Positions 1-14,743 of a stretch of DNA of 14,743 nucleotides are shown piece after piece. The notes beneath the pieces are model-generated. The model searched no databases and was not told the origin of the DNA. It worked only from the letters and a program-made list of their open reading frames with translations. The position numbers and the translations under genes were made by a program. The stretch is taken from positions 1 through 14,743 of the IMG/VR virus record IMGVR_UViG_2529293239_000005, one strand, 5' to 3'. This DNA comes from a virus (lineage: Duplodnaviria > Heunggongvirae > Uroviricota > Caudoviricetes). Position 1 is the stretch's first letter; each line of letters starts with the position of its first letter.

Positions 1-77
1 CGTTGTTTTGGTGTGCTTCGCTGTCATAGGCTTTATCTCACAGCAGTAAATTAAAATTTTTGCGTTTTAACCCTTCA

Positions 78-302
78 CCTGTTCACCTTTTGATATTTTC
101 TCTTTTAATTCATAATGTTAAGGGGTGAACAGTTTCACAAAAACTATTCACCAACTGTTCACCACTGTTCACCCTTGAAGCTCAATAAACAATCAAAAAG
201 GTGAACAGTGAATAGTTTGGTGAACAGTTCATAAACAACTGTTCACCCTATAATATACTGATATAAAAGATATTTATGACAGGGTGAACAGTGGTGAACA
301 GT
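78..302. repeat. Iteron array, candidate replication origin: 10-bp unit GGTGAACAGT / ACTGTTCACC
   Basis: Perfect copies forward at 124-133, 200-209, 219-228, 283-292, 293-302 and reverse at 154-163, 164-173, 238-247; 9/10 copies at 78-87, 143-152, 208-216. AT-rich spacer 249-277 (possible unwinding element). Starts 13 bp past the primase stop codon (315-317). Confidence 0.6.
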
Positions 303-314
303 TATTCCATAAGT

Positions 315-2132
315 TTAATTTTTGCTATCGTCATTAGTGACCGATACACATGATGGCATCCAGTCTTCTGATTCCTCCGTCAGTGTCACGTTTGAACGCA
401 AACCGTGCTTCGTTTTCCGTTTCATATACTCCCTGCCATATTCCGCCATTGCCCCCGGCATATCTTTACCGAAGCGCGTCAGTGTTACAGGTTTACCAAA
501 CCCATGTGCCCTCATATAAGCCAGATAGGCATGATAGAGATACCTGCGTGGGCTGAATGGCACAATTTCAGCATTACCCACTAACAGGCCATCACACATT
601 ACCGACGCCATGAGATAGCCGCAGAAGTCCACCAGCGAATCCCCCTCTCGCTTTATCGCCAGTGCTTCTTCAGATTTCTGCTGCTCATATAACAGGCGTC
701 TGGCTTCGTCCTGGTCAGCAAACCGTGTAAGCAGATGGCGAATCACTACCGCCAGCTCACCTTCTATTTTTTCCGCCAGCATTGGATCGCGTTCGTTCTC
801 CGGTACAACTTCCGAAAAATTGAATATCACCCGACGACGTGAGATCCCCCCGCTGCGGTCACTGAATGACATGGCGTTATTGTTAACCGCCAGCACTACT
901 GCCGGAATACGCGTTGAGTAGGGGGCTTTGTGTTTTGGGTCAATTGCCACCTTGTCACCGCCTGTAATGGCCTTAATTCCTGCCCCATCACCAGCGTAGC
1001 GGGTCATATCCGGCATGATAATCAGCGAAAAGCCAACCACTAACGCGCGTTCCCTTGCATCTTCCAGCGCCTTCATGCTTGCCGATACTGTGTTGGCCTT
1101 ACCCGCCAGCATGGTGCAAATCTCCGCCATCACGCTTTTACCACTTCCCCCTGGACCTGTTACCTCAATGAATAACTGCCAGTCGTACCGGTTCGCCAGC
1201 ACCATGAATAATGCAGCCAGTACGCGATCCGCCTTGCGGTCATTCTCAGCCACCGAACGGCGTAACCACTTCCAGAAATTCGGCGCATGTGTTGCCAGCG
1301 TTTCCCCCTCTGCTGGTGGGCTGAAAGGTAATTCACTGGCAATTAACAACCAGTCGTTTTTGTTATGCTCCCGAAAATTACCTGTTCTGGTATCAAATAC
1401 CCCGTTACTGAATCCAATCAGGTTACGGGCTGTATTCCCCATTACAGGCAAACTTAACTTCATGGTATCGACCGCCGATTTAATGGCGTTCTGCGAATAG
1501 CTGATCTCCGCATCAATGAAAATCTGTGCCATAGCTCGCTGTAATTCTTTATCCTGTACTGGCTCCCATACAACGCCGTTGTAATGGTGAACAGTGTCAG
1601 AGTCAGCATGAATCGCCAGTTCACCGCCATAATGTGCCAGGAGAACTTCGCCGCGTTGACTTGCTCCCATCTGGTTAAGCGCCAGTGATGAAGCGTTATC
1701 GTCTTTTACCCGCTCTTTTTTCTTTACAGGCAGTTCAACTACCTTTTTCTTTTCCGCCTGCTCTGCCCGTTCACGTTCCAGATATTCACGCCAGTTCTCC
1801 CGTTTCTGGCTGTGCATTCCTTCAGGGTAATAATCAGCATCCCTGACACCTGCCGCTGCCAGTTTCTGCCCGATGGTATTAACAAGCCCCGGACGCAATA
1901 ACCCCGCCTGATAGAGACGCACGCGATAGCGTCCGTCCGGTACGATTTGCAGGTTGTCCAGTTCGGCAAGTTGTTGCTCTCCAAGCCAGACAGGAGGCAC
2001 GTTATCGCCAGCCAGTCGCCCGTCCTGTTCCTGCCACTGATTCGCATGTGCCCACGCATCACTACCCGCAAAAATGATGACTTCCGTCATTTTGTCACGC
2101 GGCTGGTGTTTTAAATTTGGCGCTTTTTTCAT
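315..2132 (-). CDS. Replication protein, P4 alpha-like primase / SF3-type helicase (pri-rep)
   Basis: Long ORF with Walker A P-loop GPGGSGKS and downstream hydrophobic Walker B-like stretch, as in phage/plasmid primase C-terminal NTPase domains. Start placed at ATG 2132 (GGAGAGAG SD upstream; ATGA overlap with upstream ORF stop) rather than the GTG at 2147 used by the ORF track. Iterons lie immediately 3'. Confidence 0.75.
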   Translation of the reverse strand: MKKAPNLKHQPRDKMTEVIIFAGSDAWAHANQWQEQDGRLAGDNVPPVWLGEQQLAELDNLQIVPDGRYRVRLYQAGLLRPGLVNTIGQKLAAAGVRDADYYPEGMHSQKRENWREYLERERAEQAEKKKVVELPVKKKERVKDDNASSLALNQMGASQRGEVLLAHYGGELAIHADSDTVHHYNGVVWEPVQDKELQRAMAQIFIDAEISYSQNAIKSAVDTMKLSLPVMGNTARNLIGFSNGVFDTRTGNFREHNKNDWLLIASELPFSPPAEGETLATHAPNFWKWLRRSVAENDRKADRVLAALFMVLANRYDWQLFIEVTGPGGSGKSVMAEICTMLAGKANTVSASMKALEDARERALVVGFSLIIMPDMTRYAGDGAGIKAITGGDKVAIDPKHKAPYSTRIPAVVLAVNNNAMSFSDRSGGISRRRVIFNFSEVVPENERDPMLAEKIEGELAVVIRHLLTRFADQDEARRLLYEQQKSEEALAIKREGDSLVDFCGYLMASVMCDGLLVGNAEIVPFSPRRYLYHAYLAYMRAHGFGKPVTLTRFGKDMPGAMAEYGREYMKRKTKHGLRSNVTLTEESEDWMPSCVSVTNDDSKN

Positions 2133-2428
2133 TTCTGCTCTCTCCACGCGGCAATCATGTTTTTCAGTTCCTGTAGTTTTTTATCAACATCCATACATGA
2201 CACATGGTTATTTCTGGAAAGCGGGATTTCCCGCCTGAATCTGCTAATAAAGATCTCCACGTTCAGCGAACTATGAAATGAATAGCCATCACGAATAAAA
2301 TACACACGGTCAAACATCAGTTCTTTTACCGTTACTCTGTTACCGTTCTTATCCAGATAAACAGCGCCGGGGATAGTTTTGGGGTGTGCATAACCGCTGG
2401 CAGTCAAGCCAGATAAATATGTTCTCAT
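2129..2428 (-). CDS. Hypothetical protein, 99 aa, overlapping the primase start
   Basis: ATG at 2428 with GGGGA SD upstream; stop overlaps the primase ATG as ATGA. Same strand and operon position as the small genes preceding alpha in P4-like elements. No recognisable motif. Confidence 0.5.
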   Translation of the reverse strand: MRTYLSGLTASGYAHPKTIPGAVYLDKNGNRVTVKELMFDRVYFIRDGYSFHSSLNVEIFISRFRREIPLSRNNHVSCMDVDKKLQELKNMIAAWREQK

Positions 2429-2434
2429 GATTAT

Positions 2435-2755
2435 TTATCCCCGATTTGAATCAGTATTCGCTTTCTTTATGGCATTTAATGCATCTGTGGCATTTTCAAT
2501 GGTGCACCGTAACGAAATATCAAACTGCCCAAGCATTGCCAGTAACAAACCGATATTACCCATATCAATGCGCATAGCCTTTTCGTCATAGTCCTCATTT
2601 TCTGACGCATGCCACATCAGGCTACCAATTGACGCAATACCCATTGATATATTGTCAGTAGCCCCATCCGCAGCGGAATAAACCTTTTTAGCAATATCAT
2701 GCTCACAGTTAAAATGCGGATTAATCAGGTACTGGTAATTTGACATATCAGGCAT
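2435..2755 (-). CDS. Hypothetical protein, 106 aa
   Basis: ATG at 2755, 8-bp overlap with the upstream small gene, 6-bp gap to the next gene; tightly packed operon. No recognisable motif. Confidence 0.5.
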   Translation of the reverse strand: MPDMSNYQYLINPHFNCEHDIAKKVYSAADGATDNISMGIASIGSLMWHASENEDYDEKAMRIDMGNIGLLLAMLGQFDISLRCTIENATDALNAIKKANTDSNRG

Positions 2756-2951
2756 GGCACACCCCCTGACGAATACGGGCGGCGAATACCATCACGCAGC
2801 CAGCCGGGGATTGCTGGCGTGCTTCCTGTTCGCTGGTGGCCACGATGTGAATCACGCGCGGTTGTGCGGTGCTCAGGGCGATAAAACGCCAGATGTATTT
2901 ATTCAGGTCGTGCGAGTCCCGCCCTTGCGGGTGTGTGGTATGATTTCTCAT
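2748..2951 (-). CDS. Small protein, 67 aa; possibly an Icd-like host cell-division inhibitor (tentative)
   Basis: ATG at 2951 with GAGG SD about 6 nt upstream. The ORF track extends to a GTG at 3146 but that extension covers the operator/promoter region. Sequence (MRNHTTHPQGRDSHDLNKYIW...ATSEQEARQQ...) resembles, from memory only, small Icd-like proteins annotated in P4-like prophages; unverified. Confidence 0.45.
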   Translation of the reverse strand: MRNHTTHPQGRDSHDLNKYIWRFIALSTAQPRVIHIVATSEQEARQQSPAGCVMVFAARIRQGVCHA

Positions 2952-3048
2952 AGCTACCTCGATACGCTTTCTATCGTTGGTGGTTAGAAGCCCGGTTAGT
3001 GTTAGCGCACTGCCGGGTTTCGTCGTTTCTGCACCTTGCATCAACAAG

Positions 3049-3100
3049 GTGTTAAACACCAATTTAAGCCTAGGTGTTAAACACGTCAAGTGTTGAACAC
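3049..3100. promoter_or_regulatory. Three 11-bp perfect palindromes GTGTT-N-AACAC (candidate operators) in a divergent promoter region
   Basis: GTGTTAAACAC at 3049-3059 and 3074-3084, GTGTTGAACAC at 3090-3100, plus inverted repeat CACCTTG...CAAGGTG at 3033-3052. Candidate leftward promoter: -35 TTGACG (3090..3085), -10 TAAATT (3066..3061). Candidate rightward promoter: -35 TTGAAC (3093-3098) inside operator 3. Confidence 0.55.
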
Positions 3101-3149
3101 TTATTTTTTTCCTGCATACTGCATTTGTTTTTTGTAAGGGGTACACAAC

Positions 3150-3329
3150 ATGGCGACAAAAGCAGTAAACGCAAAATCACAAACAGTTGCGGCAAGGGTT
3201 CCGCATGAAGTTATGAACAATGTTGAGGCGGTAAAAATGCCTGGTGAAAGTACAGGGCAGTTTGTAACAGCAGCATTAAAGCGAGAAGTTGAATACCGCC
3301 AGCGTCGCAAGGCCAAAGAGCAGGAGTAA
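3150..3329 (+). CDS. Small DNA-binding protein, 59 aa, ribbon-helix-helix-like; candidate repressor
   Basis: ATG 3150 with AAGGGG SD 9 nt upstream. Segment TVAARVPHEVMNNVEAVK then GESTGQFVTAALKREVEY fits a beta-strand/helix/helix (Arc/CopG-like) pattern. Sits directly beside the palindromic operators, divergent from the replication operon. Below the ORF-track length cutoff. Confidence 0.45.
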   Translation: MATKAVNAKSQTVAARVPHEVMNNVEAVKMPGESTGQFVTAALKREVEYRQRRKAKEQE

Positions 3330-3386
3330 CCATCACCAGCGCCGTGGTGCGGTGAACTGTGGCGCACAGGGTTACAGGTATCTACG

Positions 3387-3566
3387 ATGACTGACAAATC
3401 ATTAAAGAAATTATCCTCATCCAAGAAAAAACAACGCAAAAATGCGGTAAACGAACATGAACCGGAGAGATTCGCACCATGTGCGTTTATCCTTGAGAAG
3501 TACCTTAAAGAGTATTCTAGGAAAATACGCTCATTGCAGGCATGGCAGCGAATCGAGCCAGACTGA
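3387..3566 (+). CDS. Hypothetical small basic protein, 59 aa (Lys-rich N-terminus)
   Basis: ATG 3387, weak SD; co-directional with the RHH-like gene and followed by an intrinsic terminator. A 188-aa minus-strand ORF (3101-3667) overlaps it but crosses the operators and the terminator. Confidence 0.35.
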   Translation: MTDKSLKKLSSSKKKQRKNAVNEHEPERFAPCAFILEKYLKEYSRKIRSLQAWQRIEPD

Positions 3567-3630
3567 TAGCATTGCCCACTAGCCGACAACCTGGTATTCT
3601 GGATATGCTCAAGTTTAGTGTTATGCCACT

Positions 3631-3658
3631 GGCGACCGCCCCCGGTCGCCTTTGTTTT
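3631..3658 (+). terminator. Rho-independent terminator of the rightward two-gene module
   Basis: GGCGACCG-cccc-CGGTCGCC perfect 8-bp stem followed by TTTGTTTT. Confidence 0.6.
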
Positions 3659-3676
3659 ATGTGTCATAGCTCCCCC

Positions 3677-3901
3677 CTAGGCTGCCTTACCTGAATTAAC
3701 GCGGTCACGGCTTTGCACCCAGTCCATAACTTCGGAAAGCAACCAGCCTACAGAACGCCCCCCAAGATTACGGCGAGACGGAAAGCCCCCTTTCTTCTCC
3801 AGTTCGTAGCGTGTAGTACGGCTGACGCCTGTTAACTTACGACATTCATCCTCACGAATTACGCGATCTGTTAGTGATTGAAATTGTGTATTTTGATTCA
3901 T
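3677..3901 (-). CDS. alpA: AlpA/Vis-family phage transcriptional regulator (MerR-like HTH)
   Basis: 74-aa ORF with AlpA-family pattern (...FP...GGRSVGW...E...W...). ATG 3901..3899; C-terminus GKAA verified codon by codon. Confidence 0.8.
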   Translation of the reverse strand: MNQNTQFQSLTDRVIREDECRKLTGVSRTTRYELEKKGGFPSRRNLGGRSVGWLLSEVMDWVQSRDRVNSGKAA

Positions 3902-3932
3902 AAAAACACCCTCGAACGTAACCGAACGAGGG
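3902..3932 (-). terminator. Terminator-like hairpin plus U-tract immediately 5' of the alpA start codon, sequestering its SD
   Basis: Minus-strand reading: CCCTCG-(12-nt loop)-CGAGGG-TGTTTTT-ATG. The 3' arm CGAGGG contains the only SD-like element for alpA. Candidate promoter just upstream: -35 TTGCAC (3962..3957), 16-nt spacer, -10 TAAGAT (3939..3934). Confidence 0.4.
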
Positions 3933-4004
3933 CATCTTATTTACCATAGCAGTTGGTGCAATATTGGAAAAATAAACTTTATTCTAATTTATCGTTCTCC
4001 ATGA

Positions 4005-4859
4005 TTAATTTTCATTAGATAACATTTTTCTTATTTTTTCTAAAGAATCGCTGCGCATTATTTTTTCTAAGAAGGGTTTTACAGTCTGAGCAATAGCAAA
4101 GGTGTCCTTTTCACCATCAGGATACAAAGATACGGCAAGCACCCCTAATGAAATTTTTCTATCTGTAGACAACTCCCAAGATAATAAGTCAATTAATGGG
4201 ATTATCTTATAATCAATAATTTTACGTCGTATGCTCTCCCAACTTCCTGCAATTGGTTTGTCTGGCTCAACAATTGAAAGTTCACTACGCCATTTTGGTA
4301 ATAGTTTTGTAAACGCTTCAATCAACTCATCATCTCTGTTATGTAGTAAGTCAACAGAAACAAGCATATTATCTAATGTATCAGAAAGGAGATTCACTGG
4401 TTCACGCATCACAGCCCAAAACATCCCATTATCTTCTGATATTAAACTTCCAACCATCTCATTATCTATGATGATTGGTTTATCCTTCCAATATCCTCTT
4501 TCCGCAGTCAGTTTATTAATCATTGATATATCAAACCTTGTTACAGGTTTAATTCCATCATCATAACTTAGCTCAATTAACTTCGGCTGCACTTTATGGT
4601 CATATTCTTTTTGTTTATCACAAAACCAATCGTCTTCTTTAAGCTCTCCAAATGGATCCCCGTAATTATTATGCAACGGGTATTCAGCACCAAACATAAA
4701 ACCATATTCAGGCATCTCAGAATGTTTCATTGTTAAATCATCTTGTCGCCAATATAATTGGCGAAATAGATCTTTATCCGACAAGTTTTCTAGGCAATCA
4801 TATTTGCCTAAATCAAATGACTTTGGTAAATCTTTTTTACTATTTACTTTTTTCGTCAT
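4005..4859 (-). CDS. Hypothetical protein, 284 aa; AT-rich cargo gene between int and alpA
   Basis: ATG at 4859..4857 overlaps the integrase TGA (4858..4856) as ATGA; GAGAGGG SD 5-6 nt upstream. Visibly AT-rich versus neighbours (estimated by eye, not computed). No recognisable catalytic motif. Confidence 0.7.
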   Translation of the reverse strand: MTKKVNSKKDLPKSFDLGKYDCLENLSDKDLFRQLYWRQDDLTMKHSEMPEYGFMFGAEYPLHNNYGDPFGELKEDDWFCDKQKEYDHKVQPKLIELSYDDGIKPVTRFDISMINKLTAERGYWKDKPIIIDNEMVGSLISEDNGMFWAVMREPVNLLSDTLDNMLVSVDLLHNRDDELIEAFTKLLPKWRSELSIVEPDKPIAGSWESIRRKIIDYKIIPLIDLLSWELSTDRKISLGVLAVSLYPDGEKDTFAIAQTVKPFLEKIMRSDSLEKIRKMLSNEN

Positions 4860-6076
4860 TGTATCCCTCTCAATATCACAATATTTTCTTTATATCCTGC
4901 AATCATATCAAGACGCTCAACCCATAGATTCAGTGCGTCCCGTTTCGCCTGCAAATAGCGTGAATGGTTATAGGTTTTTTGCTGACCTGGCATCTGATGC
5001 GCTGTGATGTGCTCCACGATATGCGGATCGACACCTAAATCATTCAGCATAGTTGTAAACGTGTGTCGGAAATCATGCAGCGTCCAGTGTTCCTGCTTAA
5101 GCCGCTTATGCGCATTTCGTCCATATTGCGCCACCGTGGTATCTTTTTTCAGTTCGCCGAGTAATAACCCAGTGTGTGCGTTTTGCTCCACCAGCTTCTG
5201 AATGAACGGCAAAATGCCATCAGGAATAGGTCGGAATATTGTTACCTTCGTTTTGCTGTGCTCTTTTGGCACTGTCCACAACATTTCTTTCAGATCCCAT
5301 TCTTTGATCTCTGAAAGTCTGATCTCTGCCGTTCTGCACCCGAACACAATTAACAAGCGCATTAACGCACTGTAATAGGGAGCGAACACATCACCATCAA
5401 TAGCGCGTAGAATTTCTTTTAGTTCGCTGTTGCTGTGCACTCTCTCGCGGATTTCTGCTCTCTTACCCACATCAGTAACGATCAAATCGTCCAGGGCGTT
5501 GCTAAACGCGTAGCGCCGCCTGCGGCAAAACTTTAGCGCCTGTTTGCATGTCTGCATGACATGGCCCGCTGCTACTGGTGCTTTTTTTCGTACGCGGTCA
5601 AAACATGTGATCCACTGCCTTGTATCACACTTATCAAGGGGAATTGCCCCGATATGGCAAATGATGTGCTTATCCATACGCTGCACCAGCTTTATGTAAT
5701 CTTTGCGGTTATCCTTCGCGTATTCCTCCAGCCAGTAGTTAATCGCTTCCTTCACCGTAACGGGTTTTAGTGCTTCCTGTACTGTGGCGCACAACTCATA
5801 CCGAGGGTTTTTACCCTCAGCCAGCCATGCCCGGCACTGTGTTCGCTTTTCCCTTGCAGATTTCAGCGACAATTCCGGGTAAGCCCCCAGCTTTAACCGC
5901 TCTGCGGCAACCTCACGGCCTCCCGTTCGGTACCGGAAATACCAGGTTAATTTGCCTCCCTTTGAGTGTTTAATCTCCAGCCCGCCCCCGTCGGAGTAAA
6001 AACGCTCTTTTTCTGCCTGGACAGCCACCAATTTTTTTAACGTTGAATCGCTCAGTTTGTTTAGTGCTTTTCCCAC
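4856..6076 (-). CDS. int: P4-type tyrosine integrase / site-specific recombinase
   Basis: 406-aa ORF; N-terminus typical of P4-family integrases (LSDSTLKKL...GKLTWYFRYR); C-terminal catalytic signature HDFRHTF and tyrosine in KTYNHSRY. GTG start at 6076 with AGAGGA SD 7 nt upstream. Confidence 0.9.
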   Translation of the reverse strand: MGKALNKLSDSTLKKLVAVQAEKERFYSDGGGLEIKHSKGGKLTWYFRYRTGGREVAAERLKLGAYPELSLKSAREKRTQCRAWLAEGKNPRYELCATVQEALKPVTVKEAINYWLEEYAKDNRKDYIKLVQRMDKHIICHIGAIPLDKCDTRQWITCFDRVRKKAPVAAGHVMQTCKQALKFCRRRRYAFSNALDDLIVTDVGKRAEIRERVHSNSELKEILRAIDGDVFAPYYSALMRLLIVFGCRTAEIRLSEIKEWDLKEMLWTVPKEHSKTKVTIFRPIPDGILPFIQKLVEQNAHTGLLLGELKKDTTVAQYGRNAHKRLKQEHWTLHDFRHTFTTMLNDLGVDPHIVEHITAHQMPGQQKTYNHSRYLQAKRDALNLWVERLDMIAGYKENIVILRGIQ

Positions 6077-6112
6077 TATCAGATCCTCTTTTCAGTCCTC
6101 CAGCCTCAAAAA

Positions 6113-6136
6113 ACTGACCACACAACTGACCACACA
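6113..6136. repeat. Perfect tandem direct repeat ACTGACCACACA x2, 37-60 bp upstream of the int start
   Basis: Copies at 6113-6124 and 6125-6136, followed by a CA-rich low-complexity tract (about 6140-6250). Candidate regulator or integrase arm-type binding sites. Confidence 0.5.
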
Positions 6137-6457
6137 TTTCGCTGAAGCTCGGCAAACAACAACGAACAGCAACAAACAAGAAAGCTAATTAAATCATTGT
6201 ATATCAAACACATACACAAACAATCACGAACATCCCCGAACTACAAAAAACACTAAATGAGAAAATACGGGTATTTCTCAGCCTTCACAAAGAAGGGCAC
6301 CCCGAGTCATTTAAAACAAAATCAAAAGATTGCGATTAACGTCCCGTTAATCCCTGTTCTGGATCATGCCAGCGGAAAGCCAAAGACTCAACCCTAAAAA
6401 ATCCTCTGTGTCCCAGTTTGTGTCTCACGTTGTGGCCCACAGATAAATGGCAGGCAC

Positions 6458-6482
6458 AAAAAAACCGCCCATAAGGCGGCTT
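6458..6482 (-). terminator. Rho-independent terminator (minus strand)
   Basis: Minus strand reads CCGCC-ttatg-GGCGG followed by TTTTTTT (plus strand A-run 6458-6464), 37 nt past the stop of the 6519-6701 ORF. Confidence 0.5.
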
Positions 6483-6518
6483 AAGTAAATTATTCAGTCG
6501 TGAAGATTTAAATGAAAT

Positions 6519-6701
6519 CTATTTTCTGCATACGCTTTCTTCATGCAGTCGAAGTGCTTTTGCCAATTCCAATTGGAATGCAAAGGAAAGACGGGAACGG
6601 CTGATCTTGATACCGTCAATAATGATGTATGTAGGGTAAACAGTGACCATGCGGCCCAAGTATTGGAAGTGTTTAGGGTGGTTTACTTTATCGTTATTCA
6701 T
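6519..6701 (-). CDS. Hypothetical small protein, 60 aa from the ATG (ORF track extends to a TTG at 6770)
   Basis: In-frame ATG at 6701..6699; followed by an intrinsic terminator. Weak SD, no recognisable motif; may be a gene fragment. Confidence 0.3.
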   Translation of the reverse strand: MNNDKVNHPKHFQYLGRMVTVYPTYIIIDGIKISRSRLSFAFQLELAKALRLHEESVCRK

Positions 6702-7756
6702 TGTGTGCCATCCGTCTGGGTGGGGGTAATCCCGGCAACGGATGATTGATCTAAAATCGATCAAAATCAATAACTTAACAGATCACCAAATCCAGGGGGG
6801 TGTACATTGGCGAGCCTCCCTCAGCCTAACCTATACACGACCATAAAATAGGGGCGGATTCCTTCCAGTTGGGTGGGAAAATATCTGGGAGTTTGGATAC
6901 AGTAGCCAGGCAGGGTAACCAGACCCATAGATGAGAATGTTTATTATTCCCAAATATCCAGGCGAGGGGCCTGCTGTGGCTCTCTTTACGCGCCGCTGTG
7001 GCGTCTTCTCTCCTCTTTCTATACAATCCCATAGCTAACCCATTGCGAGGCTTACAGAGCGTTACAGAGCGTCCGTGTGAATATTGCATAAATGAAAGTG
7101 GTGAAAGGTCCGATTTGGTCAACTTTTAGACAACTATTTAACATATGCGCAACAGGTTAGACCTGTACCCTTTCAATAGGTCCGCCTCCTGGGCGCTGTG
7201 TACGCCCCATAACTGTGGCTCTTCTGTACCCATCCGGGAGCCATTCCACAGAGTAAACTGTAAAACTGATCTGCCTGTGAGTAACGCCCTTTTCCTGTGG
7301 ATAACTTCCACGCACTAACCCCATAAACTCCCCTTTTGAGGCGTCCGCCTCTTCAGGCCCTTTCTTGTGGCAAAAACACAAAAAGGGTTTAGGGCGGTGG
7401 CTACCGCCCCTGTAGATGGGAATGAGTCGCACTCGAAAGAGGGATTGAGAACCAATTCTCAAGTGATAATCGATCTCATTTGTGTTCGAAGTTTTCCCCA
7501 GAAAAATAATTTTGGGGTTAAGCATGTAAAATGCTACACACTTGCACTTTGTAATGATAATTAATTGACCATAAAAACAAATAGTTAGAAGCGCTGGGGG
7601 AGTCCCACTAGTTACACAATTGATTGCTTTTTGAGCTAAAACTGATTCTTTTACCGGGTATACAATCCATTTGATCGCCCTTTACCACATATTTAAACGG
7701 ATTTAAAGCCATTTATTTAGGGGGTTAGCAAAGTGTTGATTCCATGGTTACAGATA

Positions 7757-7788
7757 ACAAAAAAGCCCGCCGGGGGTTAGCCGGGGGC
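7757..7788 (-). terminator. Rho-independent terminator (minus strand) downstream of the tape-measure remnant
   Basis: GC-rich hairpin 7765-7788 (8 bp with one bulge, 7-nt loop) followed on the minus strand by a U-tract (plus strand A-run 7757-7764). Confidence 0.5.
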
Positions 7789-7894
7789 CTGTGGTTGGGG
7801 GTGTCAAACGTGGTTAGTTCGGCCCGCCCTGCATTAGCATGTTGAAAGCCTGCTGATTATTGCTCTCAACTTCAGAGCGTACCAGATCCTTAAC

Positions 7895-9413
7895 CTATCC
7901 ATCCTGCACTTTCACATTAACGTTCACGTTTAGCGGCTGGTTTAGCCACGCTGGCGGCGTCATCAGTGGATTACCTGCCATATCAACTTTAAGCTGTGGC
8001 GCTGTAATCGTCGGCGTAGGAGGTACATAAGTTGGATTGGAGTAAGAGCTTACCCACCCTGTTTTATCTGCTGGTTTGGCAAAGTCTGGATTAGTCGGAA
8101 GGTCTGGACTATGGAGGAAATCCCACAGTTTACCCAGCGGGCTATCTTTTTTCAGATTGCCCCCGGCGGTGGTGTCCTGTCCATACATGGCGTCGTTAGC
8201 GTCATGACCTTATCCCAGGCATAATCCCCACCTACCGAACCGACCGCAATGCTCCAGCCAACAGGACCGCCAGAGAGAGCCGCCGCGCCGCCTACCTTGC
8301 CAACTTTCGGACCCCGACCCGGTTTGTTTGGCTTGTCTTTACCTTCCCCACCAGATCCGCCAGTAGTAGCGGCTTCAATGCCACCAATAGCGGCGATCCC
8401 TTTCATGACCCCCAGTAATTTGGTTAGTGGGTTAAGCATGGTCAACAACCATTTAAAGGCTACGCCCAACTTCCAGATAGACCCGGCGAACATAGCCACC
8501 CCGGCGGCGTATGCTGCCATTTCGCCCCAGGCTTTAAGCTGCTCACCAGTGATCCCCATCTTGCTGGCGTAATACTCAATAATGCGGAAGGTCAGGATCA
8601 CAGTGTCATGCAACTCTGTAAACGCATCTGTGGCACCCTCAACGATTTTCCCGGCAATATGCCCGAACATCTCAAAGGCCCCACCAGAGCCGTTAACAGC
8701 GGCGCTGATAGCGTCGAAAGCGCTGGTTAATTCGTTGCCGAAGCCAGAAGCAAAGAAGATGTTCATCGCGTTCTGCATACTGGTTTGCAGGCGCTGCCAG
8801 CTTGCCCGGTTGGACTTCATAGCCTTATCCAGAGCGCCGCCGTTACGAGCTGCGGCTTTCATCTGTTTAGCCACTTCCGGGAGGATGTCCTTAGAGAACA
8901 GCTTCCCTTGTTGCATCAGGTCAAACAGATCCTTTTCTGTAAGGTTGGTTGTCCCTTTCATCTGGTTGAGAGCCTTAACGAACAGACCCACAGCCCCCGG
9001 GAGAGCTTCGGACAACTGGCCTTTGAGTTCTTCACTCATTACCGTTCCTTTAGACATCATCTGATTCAAACTTTTCAAAGCGCGGCTGGCTTCATCGGCT
9101 GAAGCACCTGTAACAAGGCCCCATTCACTGGCACCCTCAAAGATGGATCGCATCTGGTCTTTAGGGAGCTTGTCACCAACAGCGGCGGCAAACTGAGTGT
9201 AATCACGGGAAGTCTTGAGGAGATCCAGCCCCAAACGGTTGGATTGATCACGGAGATAATCAAACTCTTTAGCGGCCTTATCTGTGGAACCGGTGATCGC
9301 TGTCAGACCAGAAAGCGCGGATTCAAAATCCTGTCCGGTGGTCATGATCTTGCCGCTCAGCGCCACAGTTGCGGCAATGGTGATCGCCCCGCCTGCACCC
9401 TCGATCATGGAGG
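7895..9413 (-). pseudogene. Phage tail tape-measure protein gene remnant: 5'-truncated by IS629 and frameshifted
   Basis: ORF 8152-9408 has the Ala/Gly/Leu/Ser-rich, low-complexity composition recalled for tape-measure N-terminal regions (e.g. the stretch ...ELKGQLSEALPGAVGLFVKALNQM...). Its reading frame stays open up to the IS boundary at 9414. ORF 7895-8188 continues in a different frame with a 37-bp overlap, implying a 1-bp indel near 8204-8215. Confidence 0.7.
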
Positions 9414-9455
9414 TGAACCGCCCCGGGTTTCCTGGAGAGTGTTTTATCTGTGAAC

Positions 9456-10346
9456 TCAGGCTGCCAGATCATCGTTTCCGATGGAAGCATAATAAGCTTT
9501 TTCTGCTTCTGCCGGAGGGATGTGGCCCAGCCTTTCCAGCAATCGTCGATTATTATACCAGTCCACCCACGTGAGTGTGGCCAGTTCCACTTCTGCACGG
9601 TTTTTCCAGCTCTTACGGTGTATTACCTCCGCTTTGTAAAGACCATTGATGCTCTCCGCCATCGCGTTGTCATACGAGTCGCCTGTACTTCCTGTTGATG
9701 CCAGTAATCCGGCTTCCTTAAGCCGCTGTGTGTAGGCCAGCGATACATACTGAGAACCTTTATCACTGTGATGGACCGTGCCGGACGGTCGACGGGCCCA
9801 TAACGCCTGCTCCAGTGCATCCAGCACGAATGTCGTCTCCATGGACGATGAGACCCGCCACCCCACAATGTATCCGGCAAACACATCAATGATGAACGCC
9901 ACATAGACGAAGCCCTGCCATGTGCTGACGTAAGTAAAATCAGCTACCCACAGCTGGTCAGGTCGTTCTGCCACGAACTGACGGTTTACGCGGTCGCCTG
10001 CGGCAACGGCTTTCCGGCTGATGGTCGTACGGACCTTTTTACCCCGGAGAACACCGGCAAGTCCCATAACCGCCATGAGACGTGCCACAGTGCATCTGGC
10101 CACTCTGATACCTTCCCGTAACAACTGACGCCAGACTTTACGCACACCGTATACCTGATGATTCCCATCGTATACGCGCAGTATCTCTTTCTTCAGCCAG
10201 TCATCGCGCTGCGCACGGGCACTGCGTTTATCCGGATGATGTCGCTGTTGCTGACAGTGGTAATACGTTGACGGGGCAATATGCAGTTCGCTGCATAGCG
10301 GTCCGACCCCGTACTGCTCACGCAGCTTATCCAGCAGTGGCATCAT
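9456..10346 (-). CDS. IS3-family transposase OrfB (DDE catalytic domain), normally made as an OrfAB fusion by -1 frameshifting
   Basis: 296-aa ORF recognised from memory as IS629-type OrfB (integrase-core DDE transposase); overlaps orfA in the -1 frame at the A6 run. Confidence 0.85.
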
Positions 10347-10669
10347 TTTTTCCAGAGGCGGTCGAACTCCGCCTTCGCAAAATAAGCGGAAGCCTGGCGA
10401 AGGATATCGTTACTGCGGCGCAGTTCACGATTTTCACGCTCCAGCTCTTTCAGACGCTGACGTTCAGCGGTGGTGAGCCCGCCATCACCGCCCCCGGTAT
10501 CCCGCTCATGCTGGCGAACCCAGACACGCAGAGTCTCCGGCGTACAGCCAATCTTTGGAGCAATGGAACAAATTGTCGCCCATTGTGAGTCATATTCGCC
10601 CTGACTTTCCAGAACCATACGGACTGCCCGTTGACGGACTTCGGGGGAAAAACGAGTATTTTTAGTCAT
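10343..10669 (-). CDS. IS3-family transposase OrfA (HTH, leucine-zipper region)
   Basis: 108-aa [22 protein letters not shown]..., recognised as IS629/IS1203-type OrfA; ends in the A6 frameshift window. Confidence 0.85.
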
Positions 10670-10811
10670 CCTGTTTACCTCTTTCTCAGGAAGTTTAGTC
10701 TCCAGGATTCCCGGGGCGGTTCATTGCCTGTATGATCAATCGACTTTGTAGAGTTTCGGACGAAGGTCCGCAGAATATTCGCAGTATTAAATAAGTGTTC
10801 ATTAATGCGGC

Positions 10812-10853
10812 AAAAACTAATACACCGCATCAATGTAACATCTCTGCGGTGTA
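10812..10853 (-). terminator. Probable intrinsic terminator of apbC
   Basis: Hairpin TACACCGCA...TGCGGTGTA (10822-10853) followed on the minus strand by TTAGTTTTTG; lies between the apbC stop and the IS629 end. Confidence 0.45.
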
Positions 10854-10882
10854 TGAAGAATAACCAGAATGGTTAATAGGCG

Positions 10883-11992
10883 TTAGACCGCGCGGAAGGA
10901 AATCTCGCCTGGAATGACTTCACCCTGCCAGTAGAGCTGAGCTGCAACGCGGTCAGCCAGCTGGCGGTAGATAGCGGTAAATTCGCTCTCCGGACGGCTG
11001 ATAACCGTTGGCGTGCCTTTATCGAGATCCTCACGTAAGGAGATGTGTAACGGCATCTGCCCCAGCAGCTGTGTGTGGTATTTTTCAGCCAGTTTCTCTG
11101 CACCACCGGTACCGAAAATCGGTTCATGGTGACCACAGTTACTGCAAATATGCACACTCATGTTCTCGACAATACCAAGCACCGGAACCTCGACTTTCTC
11201 GAACATCACAATGCCTTTTTTCGCATCGATCAACGCGATGTCCTGCGGGGTGGTGACCACGACTGCACCAGTTACTGGAATGTTTTGCGCCAGCGTCAAT
11301 TGAATGTCACCGGTGCCTGGCGGCATATCAAGCACCAGATAGTCGAGATCCGGCCACAAGGTTTCCTGCAACATCTGCATTAACGCCTTGCTCGCCATCG
11401 GTCCACGCCACACCATCGCATTGTCGTCAGTGACCAGATAACCAATTGAATTGGTTGCCAGGCAATGAGACATAATCGGTGCCATATGGGTACCGTCCGG
11501 CGAAGTTGGACGCTGATTTTCTGCGCCCAGCATGGTGGGAATTGATGGGCCGTAGATATCGGCGTCCAGAATGCCGACTTTCGCCCCTTCCGCCGCCAGT
11601 GCCAGCGCCAGGTTTACCGCCGTGGAGGATTTACCCACGCCGCCTTTACCGGAACTGACCGCAATGATGTTCTTCACACCATTAATACCCGGCTGATTCT
11701 TCACGCGTTTTAAGGTGGCGATATTGTGCGACAGTTTCCAGTCGATAGCTTTCGCCCCGGTGATACGCAGCAGTTCGGCGCTACATTGCTCTTTTAACTC
11801 TTCAAACGCGCTATGCCAGACGAATGGCATAACCAGTTCCACATGCAACGTGTCGTCCATCCAGGCGACATGGTGCAACGCTTTCAGCGTGGTGAGGTTA
11901 TGCTTCAGGGTTGGGTGCTGAAAATTGGCCAGTGTCCCGGCGACCATTGCGCGCAAGGCTTCTGGTGATTTGGCCTGGGATTGTTCGTTCAT
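10883..11992 (-). CDS. apbC: Fe-S cluster carrier ATPase ApbC/Mrp
   Basis: 369-aa protein MNEQSQAKSPEALRAM... with P-loop GKGGVGKS and CxxC; recognised as E. coli Mrp. ATG at 11992..11990; the ORF track's 12022 start is an upstream in-frame extension. Confidence 0.95.
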   Translation of the reverse strand: MNEQSQAKSPEALRAMVAGTLANFQHPTLKHNLTTLKALHHVAWMDDTLHVELVMPFVWHSAFEELKEQCSAELLRITGAKAIDWKLSHNIATLKRVKNQPGINGVKNIIAVSSGKGGVGKSSTAVNLALALAAEGAKVGILDADIYGPSIPTMLGAENQRPTSPDGTHMAPIMSHCLATNSIGYLVTDDNAMVWRGPMASKALMQMLQETLWPDLDYLVLDMPPGTGDIQLTLAQNIPVTGAVVVTTPQDIALIDAKKGIVMFEKVEVPVLGIVENMSVHICSNCGHHEPIFGTGGAEKLAEKYHTQLLGQMPLHISLREDLDKGTPTVISRPESEFTAIYRQLADRVAAQLYWQGEVIPGEISFRAV

Positions 11993-12123
11993 CCCTACTC
12001 CTTTTTTGTATAGATAAACCATCAGCTGATAGTTTACCTGAAGAATATAGAGAAGTACTTACTTAACATTTTCCCATTTGGTACTATCTAACCCCTTTTC
12101 ACTATTAAGAAGTAATGCCTACT

Positions 12124-14157
12124 ATGACTCAAGTCGCGAAGAAAATTCTGGTGACGTGCGCACTGCCGTACGCTAACGGCTCAATCCACCTCGGCCATAT
12201 GCTGGAGCACATCCAGGCTGATGTCTGGGTCCGTTACCAGCGAATGCGCGGCCACGAGGTCAACTTCATCTGCGCCGACGATGCCCACGGTACACCGATC
12301 ATGCTGAAAGCTCAGCAGCTTGGTATCACCCCGGAGCAGATGATTGGCGAAATGAGTCAGGAGCATCAGACTGATTTCGCAGGCTTTAACATCAGCTATG
12401 ACAACTATCACTCGACACACAGCGAAGAGAACCGCCAGTTGTCAGAACTTATCTACTCTCGCCTGAAAGAAAACGGTTTTATTAAAAACCGCACCATCTC
12501 TCAGCTGTACGATCCGGAAAAAGGCATGTTCCTGCCGGACCGTTTTGTGAAAGGCACCTGCCCGAAATGTAAATCCCCGGATCAATACGGCGATAACTGC
12601 GAAGTCTGCGGCGCGACCTACAGCCCGACTGAACTGATCGAGCCGAAATCGGTGGTTTCTGGCGCTACCCCGGTAATGCGTGATTCTGAACACTTCTTCT
12701 TTGATCTGCCCTCTTTCAGCGAAATGTTGCAGGCATGGACCCGCAGCGGTGCGTTGCAGGAGCAGGTGGCAAACAAAATGCAGGAGTGGTTTGAATCTGG
12801 CCTGCAACAGTGGGATATCTCCCGCGACGCACCTTACTTCGGTTTTGAAATTCCGAACGCGCCGGGCAAATATTTCTACGTCTGGCTGGACGCACCGATT
12901 GGCTACATGGGTTCTTTCAAGAATCTGTGCGACAAGCGCGGCGACAGCGTAAGCTTCGATGAATACTGGAAGAAAGACTCCACCGCCGAGCTGTACCACT
13001 TCATCGGTAAAGATATCGTTTACTTCCACAGCCTGTTCTGGCCTGCCATGCTGGAAGGCAGCAACTTCCGCAAGCCGACCAACCTGTTTGTTCATGGCTA
13101 TGTGACGGTGAACGGCGCGAAGATGTCCAAGTCTCGCGGCACCTTTATTAAAGCCAGCACCTGGCTGAATCATTTTGACGCAGACAGCCTGCGTTACTAC
13201 TACACTGCGAAACTCTCTTCGCGCATCGATGATATCGATCTCAACCTGGAAGATTTCGTTCAGCGTGTGAATGCCGATATCGTTAACAAAGTGGTTAACC
13301 TGGCCTCCCGTAATGCGGGCTTTATCAACAAGCGTTTTGACGGCGTGCTGGCAAGCGAACTGGCTGACCCGCAGTTGTACAAAACCTTCACTGATGCCGC
13401 TGAAGTGATTGGTGAAGCGTGGGAAAGCCGTGAATTTGGTAAAGCCGTGCGCGAAATCATGGCGCTGGCTGATCTGGCTAACCGCTATGTCGATGAACAG
13501 GCTCCGTGGGTGGTGGCGAAACAGGAAAGCCGCGATGCCGACCTGCAGGCAATTTGCTCAATGGGCATCAACCTGTTCCGCGTGCTGATGACTTACCTGA
13601 AGCCGGTACTGCCGAAACTGACCGAGCGTGCAGAAGCATTCCTCAATACGGAACTGACCTGGGATGGTATCCAGCAACCGCTGCTGGGCCACAAAGTGAA
13701 TCCGTTCAAGGCGCTGTATAACCGCATCGATATGAGGCAGGTTGAAGCACTGGTGGAAGCCTCTAAAGAAGAAGTAAAAGCCGCTGCCGCGCCGGTAACT
13801 GGCCCGCTGGCAGATGATCCGATTCAGGAAACCATCACCTTTGACGACTTCGCTAAAGTTGACCTGCGCGTGGCGCTGATTGAAAACGCAGAGTTTGTTG
13901 AAGGTTCTGACAAACTGCTGCGCCTGACGCTGGATCTCGGCGGTGAAAAACGCAATGTCTTCTCCGGTATTCGTTCTGCTTACCCGGATCCGCAGGCACT
14001 GATTGGTCGTCACACCATTATGGTGGCTAACCTAGCACCACGTAAAATGCGCTTCGGTATCTCTGAAGGCATGGTGATGGCTGCCGGTCCTGGCGGGAAA
14101 GATATTTTCCTGCTAAGCCCGGATGCCGGTGCTAAACCGGGTCATCAGGTGAAATAA
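12124..14157 (+). CDS. metG: Methionyl-tRNA synthetase
   Basis: 677-aa protein [26 protein letters not shown]... with HIGH-type motif (HLGH), KMSKS, zinc knuckle CPKC...C..CG and C-terminal tRNA-binding domain. Start taken as the second ATG (12124), matching the E. coli MetG N-terminus. Confidence 0.97.
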
Positions 14158-14166
14158 TCCCCCTTC

Positions 14167-14196
14167 AAGGCGCTGCATCGACAGCGCCTTTTCTTT
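14167..14196 (+). terminator. Rho-independent terminator of metG
   Basis: AAGGCGCTG-catcga-CAGCGCCTT stem-loop followed by TTCTTT. Confidence 0.6.
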
Positions 14197-14297
14197 ATAA
14201 ATTCCTAAAGTTGTTTTCTTGCGATTTTGTCTCTCTCTAACCCGCATAAATACTGGTAGCATCTGCATTCAACTGGATAAAATTACAGGGATGCAGA

Positions 14298-14528
14298 ATG
14301 AGACACTTTATCTATCAGGACGAAAAATCACATAAATTCTGGGCAGTTGAGCAACAGGGAAACGAGTTGCATATCAGTTGGGGAAAAGTTGGCACCAAAG
14401 GGCAAAGCCAGATAAAAAGTTTTTCAGATGCTGCGGCAGCGGCAAAAGCGGAGCTTAAGCTGATTGCGGAGAAGGTGAAGAAGGGGTATGTGGAGCAAGC
14501 GAAGGATAATGAGGTGTACTGGCAATAG
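14298..14528 (+). CDS. WGR-domain protein, 76 aa; probably the N-terminal remnant of a molR/yehI-like gene cut by an IS
   Basis: N-terminus FIYQDEKSHKFWAVE...WGKVGTKGQ...KGY matches the WGR domain pattern. The ORF stops 8 codons after the domain, where an IS3-family terminus begins (TGTACTG at about 14515). Confidence 0.55.
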   Translation: MRHFIYQDEKSHKFWAVEQQGNELHISWGKVGTKGQSQIKSFSDAAAAAKAELKLIAEKVKKGYVEQAKDNEVYWQ

Positions 14529-14743
14529 CGGACACTACCATTTGTTCTTTTTTTAAGCAGCCATCTGATGATATTTTTCCCTGAAGGCTGCCGGGGAGAT
14601 ATTCCCCAGACGAGAGTGACGACGCTGACGATTGTAGAAAATCTCAATGTATTCCCGTATTACTGAGATGGCTTCATCCCGGTTATTAAAACGATAGTGG
14701 CTCAGGCTCTCATTTTTCAGCGTTCCCCAGAAGCTTTCCATCG
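14515..14743 (-). mobile_element. Second IS3-family element (partial), terminus near 14515-14530
   Basis: Transposase stop at 14553-14555 followed by about 25-40 bp of presumptive terminal inverted repeat; plus-strand TGTACTGGCAATAGCGGACAC resembles IS3/IS150-group termini. Exact boundary not determinable here. Confidence 0.55.
14553..14743 (-). CDS. IS3-family transposase OrfB, C-terminal end (partial; continues beyond the window)
   Basis: C-terminal sequence ...FWGTLKNESLSHYRFNNRDEAISVIREYIEIFYNRQRRHSRLGNISPAAFREKYHQMAA is typical of IS3-family DDE transposase tails. Different from the IS629 copy at 9414-10723. Confidence 0.75.
   Translation of the reverse strand, partial: MESFWGTLKNESLSHYRFNNRDEAISVIREYIEIFYNRQRRHSRLGNISPAAFREKYHQMAA

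Follow-up and report, generated by a model that had tools for sequence, protein, structure and literature searches.

The window examined here, meaning the whole stretch of DNA analyzed, is 14,743 nt long (positions 1 to 14,743 of IMG/VR virus record IMGVR_UViG_2529293239_000005, Caudoviricetes) and contains an island in which three small open reading frames (ORFs) run into a replicase/primase gene. Comparative analysis indicates, with a probability that we put at roughly 60%, that these ORFs lie nearest the promoter in the early (replication) operon of an integrase-AlpA-primase phage satellite, one of the phage-inducible chromosomal island (PICI) or capsid-encoding kind, and that the first of them, a homolog of the cell division inhibitor gene icd of phage P1, is guarded by an antisense RNA.

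All genes of the operon lie on the minus strand. Gene 1 (2748-2951), the first of the operon, encodes an Icd-like protein of 67 amino acids (aa) from the ATG at 2951, an internal ATG of a 132-codon open frame; gene 2 (2435-2755) encodes a 106-aa helical-hairpin protein of the orphan family F1 and is a cassette of a variable slot; gene 3 (2129-2428), the last small gene, encodes a 99-aa DUF4222 protein; and the replicase/primase gene (315-2132, start ATG at 2132) encodes a 605-aa protein with D5_N, DUF5906 and Pox_D5 domains. Genes 1 and 2 overlap by 8 nt (ATGCCTGA, 2748-2755), genes 2 and 3 are separated by a 6-nt gap (2429-2434), gene 3 and the primase gene share an ATGA overlap (2129-2132), and terminator-like sites were not found on the minus strand from 2951 to 315. 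The initial annotation had described ORFs of 67, 106 and 99 aa with these junctions, packed in a single tightly coupled operon running into the primase and lacking recognizable catalytic motifs; all of this was borne out, including the absence of a catalytic motif from each of the three proteins. The RefSeq annotation of Escherichia coli FCI56 contains exactly the same coding sequences (CDSs), and its sequence differs from window positions 2-6300 by a single nucleotide. Regarding the coding status of the ORFs, for which conservation and the balance of synonymous and non-synonymous changes had been named as the test, all three are genuine genes under purifying selection: third-position changes are commonest and dN/dS in informative comparisons is 0.19-0.54, with pairwise values against diverged copies of 0.28-0.53 for the Icd-like gene, 0.19-0.25 for the 106-aa gene and 0.35-0.54 for the DUF4222 gene. 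Family matches of the three-gene set were to NF033153 (5e-20), PF13973 (DUF4222; 1.6e-15) and phrog_15327 (1e-71), and two of the three small genes fall in named families of partly known or obscure function. Of 5426 complete E. coli genomes, 466 carry the whole 823-nt cassette (at least 80% coverage) and 1590 match part of it, including at minimum the Icd-like gene. In the phage collection of 50,697 records, the region gave only a single 75-nt match (blastn), the Icd-like protein matched one capsid-forming PICI (cf-PICI)-like record and no other, and neither the 106-aa protein nor the DUF4222 protein had a match (tblastn).

The 67-aa protein matches the NCBIfam model NF033153 ("host cell division inhibitor Icd-like") with 71.2 bits (cut-off 25; E 5.3e-20), the same model that P1 Icd matches with 52.6 bits, and aligns with P1 Icd by BLASTP at 37% identity across 43 aa (E 7e-7). 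By these matches gene 1 is a homolog of P1 Icd, and the initial suggestion of an Icd-like product holds; its attribution of Icd to the functions of P4-type elements does not, icd being a gene of P1 and not of P4. A Shine-Dalgarno (SD) sequence, GAGG, lies 5 nt 5' of the ATG, and SD and ATG are kept in every locus. In P1, icd inhibits cell division and is required for expression of ant, and the C4 RNA represses it at its ribosome-binding site (P1 record). Expression of the P1 protein is toxic.

A conserved cis-antisense small RNA is predicted on the plus strand at 2949-3031. It comprises two hairpins and a U-rich tail, and its sequence can pair with both the SD and the ATG of gene 1. The RNA was aligned over 19 loci from Escherichia, Shigella, Klebsiella, Enterobacter, Pectobacterium, Rahnella, Pantoea, Rosenbergiella and others; a narrower Icd alignment used for the locus search yielded 16 loci. 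The consensus fold energy is -29.2 kcal/mol on the antisense (plus) strand and -13.7 kcal/mol on the operon (minus) strand, with 23 predicted pairs (11 of them compensatory) against 14. When the same structure is imposed on both strands, 424 of 434 cells are paired on the antisense strand (97.7%; as good in none of 500 shuffles, with slid controls at 36-50%) and 361 of 434 on the operon strand, and G·U pairs number 65 and 2, respectively. The difference of 63 pairs is made up of G·U pairs of the antisense strand, which turn into C·A mismatches on the operon strand, and this argues that selection acts on the plus-strand RNA. The T-rich tail following the GC-rich second hairpin is found on the antisense strand only, and the RNA of the window has a minimum free energy of -36.5 kcal/mol (z = -4.4). 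Hexamers resembling a -10 element (TATGAT, TATGCT, TAGACT) occur 4-13 nt before CAT, the complement of the start codon, in all loci; in the window a candidate extended -10 of the antisense RNA (TGgTATGAT) is predicted at 2936-2944 on the plus strand, inside the Icd coding region. The pattern of conservation indicates a plus-strand RNA under selection over the Icd start, and as in type I toxin-antitoxin systems this selected antisense RNA is complementary to the translation-initiation region of its target. From this we infer that the RNA is expressed and that it represses the Icd-like gene.

Regarding known RNAs, the full Rfam SymR model (RF01809) matched window positions 2952-3024 on the plus strand, adjoining the Icd ATG, with 32.8 bits (E 0.0025) at a relaxed threshold, the gathering score of 61 bits being reached neither in the window nor in any of 14 related loci. 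Conversely, the covariance model R1, built from these loci only, matched symR of E. coli K-12 (28.3 bits, E 5.7e-5), its first three positions aligning on the complement of the symE ATG. The window RNA shares with the SymE/SymR system of K-12 a length of about 77-83 nt, the cis-antisense position, a beginning at the complement of the target start codon, the two hairpins, a conserved GUGRUUAG linker and the GUGUU...GCAC loop region, and profiles match in both directions; it differs in its target (an Icd-like protein, whereas SymE has an AbrB fold), in a score below gathering and in its setting, which is a satellite operon here and a lone SOS-induced gene in K-12. The immI operon of P1 (c4 RNA, icd, ant1/2) resembles the window operon in its homologous Icd, both proteins matching NF033153, in the position of icd as the first gene, in the overlap of icd with the start of the next gene, which couples their translation, and in a small RNA that controls the ribosome-binding site. 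P1 C4, however, is encoded upstream on the same strand while the window RNA is cis-antisense and has no C4 similarity, and the downstream gene of P1 encodes the antirepressor Ant where the window has small cassettes and the replicase. Model R1 had no match in the P1 immI region, and the Rfam C4 model (RF01695) had none at E<=1 in window positions 1-6400, so that an operon-strand RNA of the P1 immI type was not found there. The literature searched makes no mention of an antisense RNA at genes of the Icd-like family.

Upstream of gene 1, a sigma-70-like promoter of the operon is predicted by consensus match at 3061-3089 on the minus strand (TTGACG 3089-3084, 17 nt, TAAATT 3066-3061), where the number of sigma-70-like sites in the region is not above chance. 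It lies among three copies of the palindrome AGGTGTTAAACAC, putative operators at 3047-3059, 3072-3084 and 3088-3100 just past the terminator of the antisense RNA, and palindromes of the form AGGTG-N5-7-CACCT were seen by eye at the equivalent place in other genera. The operator-controlled promoter proposed earlier for the operon is consistent with this arrangement. A divergent gene encoding a 59-aa protein of the YlcI/YnfO family (3150-3329, plus strand; NF041551, 2e-16) follows, and its homologs are divergent from the Icd leader in most loci; the YlcI/YnfO protein is a candidate operator-binding regulator of the palindromes. Further upstream of the operon lies a gene for an AlpA-family regulator (3677-3901, minus strand; PF05930, 4.8e-16).

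The 99-aa product of gene 3, left unassigned in the initial annotation, belongs to DUF4222 (PF13973, 56.8 bits with a gathering score of 27, E 1.6e-15, profile positions 3-52 of 53). Its AlphaFold model (mean predicted local distance difference test score, pLDDT, 75) has a disordered N-terminus, a barrel of 4-5 strands at residues 23-56 and a C-terminal helix at 78-98, and the protein is thus modeled as a Tudor/SH3-like barrel plus helix. The DUF4222 gene stands directly 5' of the replicase gene with a 4-nt overlap in 10 of 11 occurrences. The replicases linked to it share an N-terminal module of about 140 residues even where the remainder differs, as between the window primase and a DUF927 protein (locus L012) that are 93% identical over residues 1-146 and otherwise unrelated; the module matches phrog_2850 and no Pfam family. 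A P4-alpha primase-domain match above the NCBIfam cut-off was not found in the replicase. In one Klebsiella locus (L026), a 75%-identical replicase is preceded by a different small gene, without DUF4222. Gene 3 is the usual final cassette and most likely encodes an adaptor of the replicase.

For the 106-aa product of gene 2, no match was found in Pfam, NCBIfam, PADLOC or PDB sequence profiles, and a Pfam scan of 15 family members was likewise empty. When 1.84 billion representative proteins were scanned in full with HMMER, only 20 members were returned, about 10 of which are proteins of approximately 100 aa with 25-41% identity. These relatives, found in other genera and satellites, occupy the equivalent operon position after an Icd-like gene or some other small gene, again mostly with an 8-nt overlap at the upstream junction, and precede a 112-122-aa gene or the replicase. 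By this distribution it is a tiny orphan family confined to such islands. The AlphaFold model (pLDDT 81) is a helical hairpin with helices at residues 19-51 and 58-104, and the near-invariant residues G44, M47, A50, Y56, D64 and G69 are grouped about the acidic tip SENEDYDEK. Foldseek searches against the PDB yielded generic hairpins only (EsxB, occludin, UvsY; E>=0.9) and a fold was not assigned; a Gre/DksA-like reading suggested by the acidic tip is backed by no search and is not claimed, and a membrane hairpin was rejected because the hydropathy, computed by hand, is too low. As a soluble helical hairpin, the protein most likely binds a protein of the host, the helper or a competitor. A literature search found no functional studies of gene 2 or of the DUF4222 gene. 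Fused Icd-like::106-aa products of 166-324 aa were observed in public assemblies (proteins P0001, P0002, P0057); our guess is that they arise from 1-nt differences near a G-run before the 8-nt overlap.

The region between the Icd-like gene and the replicase is a slot that, in 23 loci, holds 1-5 ORFs each, drawn in varied combinations from at least 21 small-protein families. Among 78 distinct small-gene junctions (L002-L032 and the window), 32 are overlaps of 8 nt and 24 are overlaps of 4 nt. The 8-nt junctions have the consensus cAGGAGGTG-N4-ATG-NN-TRA, and this shared sequence means that the last codons of each cassette are the ribosome-binding site of the next, which thus dictates the C-terminal residues of each small protein. 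Comparisons by hhalign among families F1, F2, F3, F4, F13, F14 and F21 gave probabilities below 1%, revealing no relationship, which means that DUF4222 did not arise by divergence from the genes found in its place. In locus L011 the Icd allele is 56% identical to that of the window while the next two genes are 95-97% identical, which points to recombination at the junctions. These patterns indicate that small-gene cassettes are exchanged in the slot via stereotyped junctions. A toxin-antitoxin pairing of the Icd-like protein with the hairpin protein was considered and is weakened, since the Icd allele of L011 has been swapped independently and other cassettes can intervene.

Regarding the type of element, an integrase gene (4856-6076, minus strand), the AlpA regulator gene and the primase gene lie in the window, as in PICIs and cf-PICIs, while the capsid part lies outside it and rests on a twin genome (L001). 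In the twin, the island is about 11 kb long and continues to the left into a ClpP-protease/major-capsid fusion, DUF1441 and tail-gene fragments. Relatives carrying the cassette have capsid genes plus, depending on the locus, prohead protease and portal or small terminase genes. The genes psu, delta and sid were not found in the window, and the twin and relatives carry capsid and protease genes instead; having its own capsid genes, no lysis or complete tail module and none of these three, the element is PICI- or cf-PICI-like and not P4 proper, contrary to the P4-like identity first proposed for it. The order integrase, AlpA, small genes, primase/replicase, capsid module is that of cf-PICIs of the EcCIEDL933 type and of Gram-negative PICIs, from which the island of the twin differs in having the ClpP-protease/capsid fusion, DUF1441 and tail fragments rather than a nine-gene packaging module. 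An island beside roxA/pepT in O157:H7, which from its position we take to be of the EcCIEDL933 type, shares this order, with an Icd-like gene, small ORFs, DUF4222, a DUF927 replicase, single-stranded DNA-binding protein (SSB) and capsid genes. Accession LR881103.1 (L034; 16.5 kb), named 'Escherichia phage vB_KppS-Ant', was deposited as an induced prophage; its genes follow the order of a cf-PICI, namely integrase, regulator, long Icd-like CDS, small ORFs, primase, capsid, protease, portal, connectors and small and large terminase subunits (TerS/TerL), and it appears to be a satellite entered under the name of a phage. The left operon of P4 comprises kil, CI RNA, eta, epsilon, orf151 and alpha, and thus likewise is an RNA-controlled early operon with a host-killing start, small accessory genes and a primase at its end; the window differs from P4 in lacking psu, delta, sid, an Ash match and a P4-alpha primase-domain match above cut-off. 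An integrase and an AlpA/Vis-type regulator, common to P4 and the window, are among the core genes of satellites (PMC10085698), and the accessory genes of cf-PICIs include Icd and YlcI/YnfO according to a 2026 survey of Enterobacter cloacae cf-PICIs (PMC13612085). Nowhere does the literature searched assign a function to the small genes.

Under the preferred reading, pairing of the plus-strand RNA over the ribosome-binding site and ATG of the Icd-like gene would block its translation, and since the downstream genes are chained by overlaps of 8 and 4 nt, the pairing should also damp expression down to the replicase. The island would then remain silent until the RNA is titrated or bypassed by strong transcription, which could start at the operator-flanked promoter or arrive as read-through from alpA once a helper phage has infected the cell. 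After induction, the Icd-like protein would arrest division, the hairpin protein would bind its partner and the DUF4222 protein would assist the replicase. Such silencing would have its analog in the RNA immunity exerted by P4 CI, beside that of P1 C4 on icd-ant.

A different picture of gene 1 emerges from the relatives, in most of which the Icd domain is the C-terminal end of an ORF of 220-435 codons, with the Icd frame open for 160-400 codons upstream and in some loci from just after alpA. In 12 nucleotide-distinct versions this frame adds up to 3268 codons and contains no stop, about 190 stops being found in either of the remaining frames (chance <1e-40). It crosses, in antisense orientation, the YlcI/YnfO gene as well as the palindromes and the RNA target, and its wobble positions coincide with those of the YlcI frame. 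In the window, a 188-codon ORF (3101-3667, minus strand) starts 9 nt after the alpA stop and corresponds to the part fused in frame to the Icd-like domain in relatives; the long ORF is broken by a missing base in a T7 run at 3104-3110 that is T8 in relatives. The twin locus L001 (15103 region) has T8 and is otherwise identical to the window here. Exact matches among 413 E. coli genomes number at most 1 for the T7 form and 132 for the T8 form, so the window carries either a rare mutation or a sequencing error. By eye, the T run lies within the spacer of a possible YlcI promoter (TTGAAC 3093-3098 ... CATACT 3115-3120). The 67-aa gene could accordingly be the C-terminal remnant of a functional protein of about 306 aa, the window copy being a pseudogene or the product of a sequencing error, as the stop-free frame in 12 distinct locus types, the rarity of T7 and the long form annotated as a CDS in vB_KppS-Ant and gene-called in metagenome contigs would suggest. 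This alternative is possible but doubtful, given that an internal SD and ATG, the exact target of the antisense RNA, are present in every locus, that six loci have short stand-alone Icd-like forms and that P1 Icd itself has 73 aa. Moreover, the extension has a junk-like composition, and its conserved stretches coincide with nucleic-acid features, which are a hairpin, the antisense RNA and the YlcI gene of the opposite strand. Pfam scans of the 132-aa extended Icd ORF and of long forms of 427 and 256 aa found no domain, nor did scans of the neighboring small proteins except for Ash in the L013 pseudogene. We conclude that the short Icd-like protein is real and that the upstream frame is also kept translatable; one possibility is that translation along this frame gets around the antisense RNA when AlpA drives transcription.

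Regarding host defense, an E. coli ECOR61 prophage carries an abortive-infection system that combines a toxic Icd-like effector with a DNA primase and a number of small genes, and that requires six linked genes including the primase (bioRxiv 10.1101/2023.04.06.535777). The window operon might similarly be a programmed-cell-death module, with the Icd-like protein as effector and the small genes and primase sensing a phage protein. Removal of the Icd-like gene abolishes the ECOR61 effect, and long Icd-like ORFs are the rule among the relatives of the window; the ECOR61 effector, however, has a long N-terminal extension where that of the window is out of frame, its long form being broken by T7, and homology between the two loci may be limited to the Icd-like domain. 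Further, no PADLOC-DB defense model matched the three proteins or the primase at E<=0.1, and the same operon occurs in elements that are packaged on induction, so that a replication role is needed in any case. We give this explanation limited credence, noting that defense and replication roles are not exclusive.

The initial annotation had placed epsilon-like derepression at this position and regarded the 106-aa and 99-aa products as factors for manipulating a helper phage, that is, epsilon/Ash-like derepressors or interference proteins. Part of this stands for the slot, since an Ash/epsilon-family (PF10554) sequence, in a pseudogene, occupies it in one relative (L013), whereas none of the three window proteins hits PF10554. 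The highly variable slot content, as expected in an arms race, and the absence of the 106-aa family from the phage records, with its confinement to such islands, also favor the idea. In neither protein, however, did sequence or profile comparison show a likeness to Ash, Bro, Ant or another antirepressor, and DUF4222 is the conserved rather than a variable member of the array and tracks the replicase. Gram-negative PICIs are induced by way of AlpA and are not known to require their own derepressor. We give helper manipulation by these two proteins a low but appreciable probability; this explanation, like the long protein and the cell-death module, is compatible with an antisense-guarded replication operon and the readings are not mutually exclusive.

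The regulatory RNA of P4 lies on the operon strand, and by that token the conserved element over the Icd start could be a cis-acting leader of the operon mRNA (a translational attenuator or processing site) instead of an antisense RNA. This is very unlikely, for although the same hairpins can form on the operon strand with one arm adjoining the SD, and the P1 record places the P1 regulatory RNA on that strand as well, 63 of 434 pair cells there become C·A mismatches, the consensus energy is under half of the antisense value, the U-tail is on the opposite strand, both SymR comparisons match the antisense strand and Rfam C4 has no match.

Several observations weigh against the reading of an antisense-guarded replication operon or against parts of it. 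The score below Rfam gathering makes the RNA SymR-like without establishing membership of the SymR family, its predicted promoter is a consensus match in coding-constrained sequence, and the long ORF that passes through the RNA target in most relatives is unexplained by the simple model. Toxicity and a block of cell division by the Icd-like protein of the window are assumed from P1, and the fold matches of the modeled proteins of genes 2 and 3 are generic. The swap of the Icd allele in L011, with genes 2 and 3 little changed, argues against a specific Icd-hairpin partnership, and the L026 replicase lacking a 5' DUF4222 gene indicates that the replicase is not strictly dependent on DUF4222.

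Of the remaining features, a DUF6387 gene encoding 284 aa (4005-4859, minus strand) lies between the integrase and alpA genes and overlaps the integrase stop by 4 nt; this position holds other genes, such as unrelated hypotheticals, in related islands (L015, L002-L006) and is possibly a slot for accessory genes or cargo. The Rfam int-alpA RNA motif (RF02996) was detected above threshold in L015 (8406-8473), L020 (2153-2218) and L023 (1863-1928), and was not detected in the window at E<=1. An imperfect (87%) direct repeat of 70 bp flanks the island, at 6111-6180 in the window (right copy) and at 7047-7116 and 18110-18179 in L001, the left copy abutting the thiM leader; a weak match resembling the thiamine pyrophosphate (TPP) riboswitch was seen at window positions 6216-6314 on the minus strand (21.6 bits, E 0.82). 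Beyond the island, window positions 6100-10669 and 14553-14741 differ from the twin genome. They include a truncated tail tape-measure gene (8152-9408, minus strand) and, at 9456-10669 on the minus strand, two ORFs of an element of the insertion sequence (IS) family IS3. A partial transposase lies at the end of the window, and together these replace the rcnRAB-yeh region of FCI56 before apbC and metG.

No description of the SymR-like RNA, the dual-strand long ORF or the cassette junctions was found in the literature searched. As a tentative generalization, many enterobacterial satellites may silence their replication operon by an RNA immunity module composed of a SymR-like RNA, an Icd-like head gene and coupled cassettes, with the long ORF as an AlpA-driven bypass and the leader-antisense cassette reused for the unrelated toxin SymE. 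Gram-negative PICI and cf-PICI satellites are widespread, and how they are kept silent without a protein master repressor is poorly understood; if the reading is true, an antisense RNA on the first toxic gene would constitute an RNA-based immunity comparable to P4 CI and P1 C4, and the orphan chromosomal SymE/SymR system would become a relative of a satellite RNA module. The long ORF over a real antisense gene would be a test case for dual-strand coding or for translation mattering per se, and the slot between the Icd-like gene and the replicase offers a catalog of 21 or more families of small proteins, whose probable targets are hosts, helpers or rival phages.

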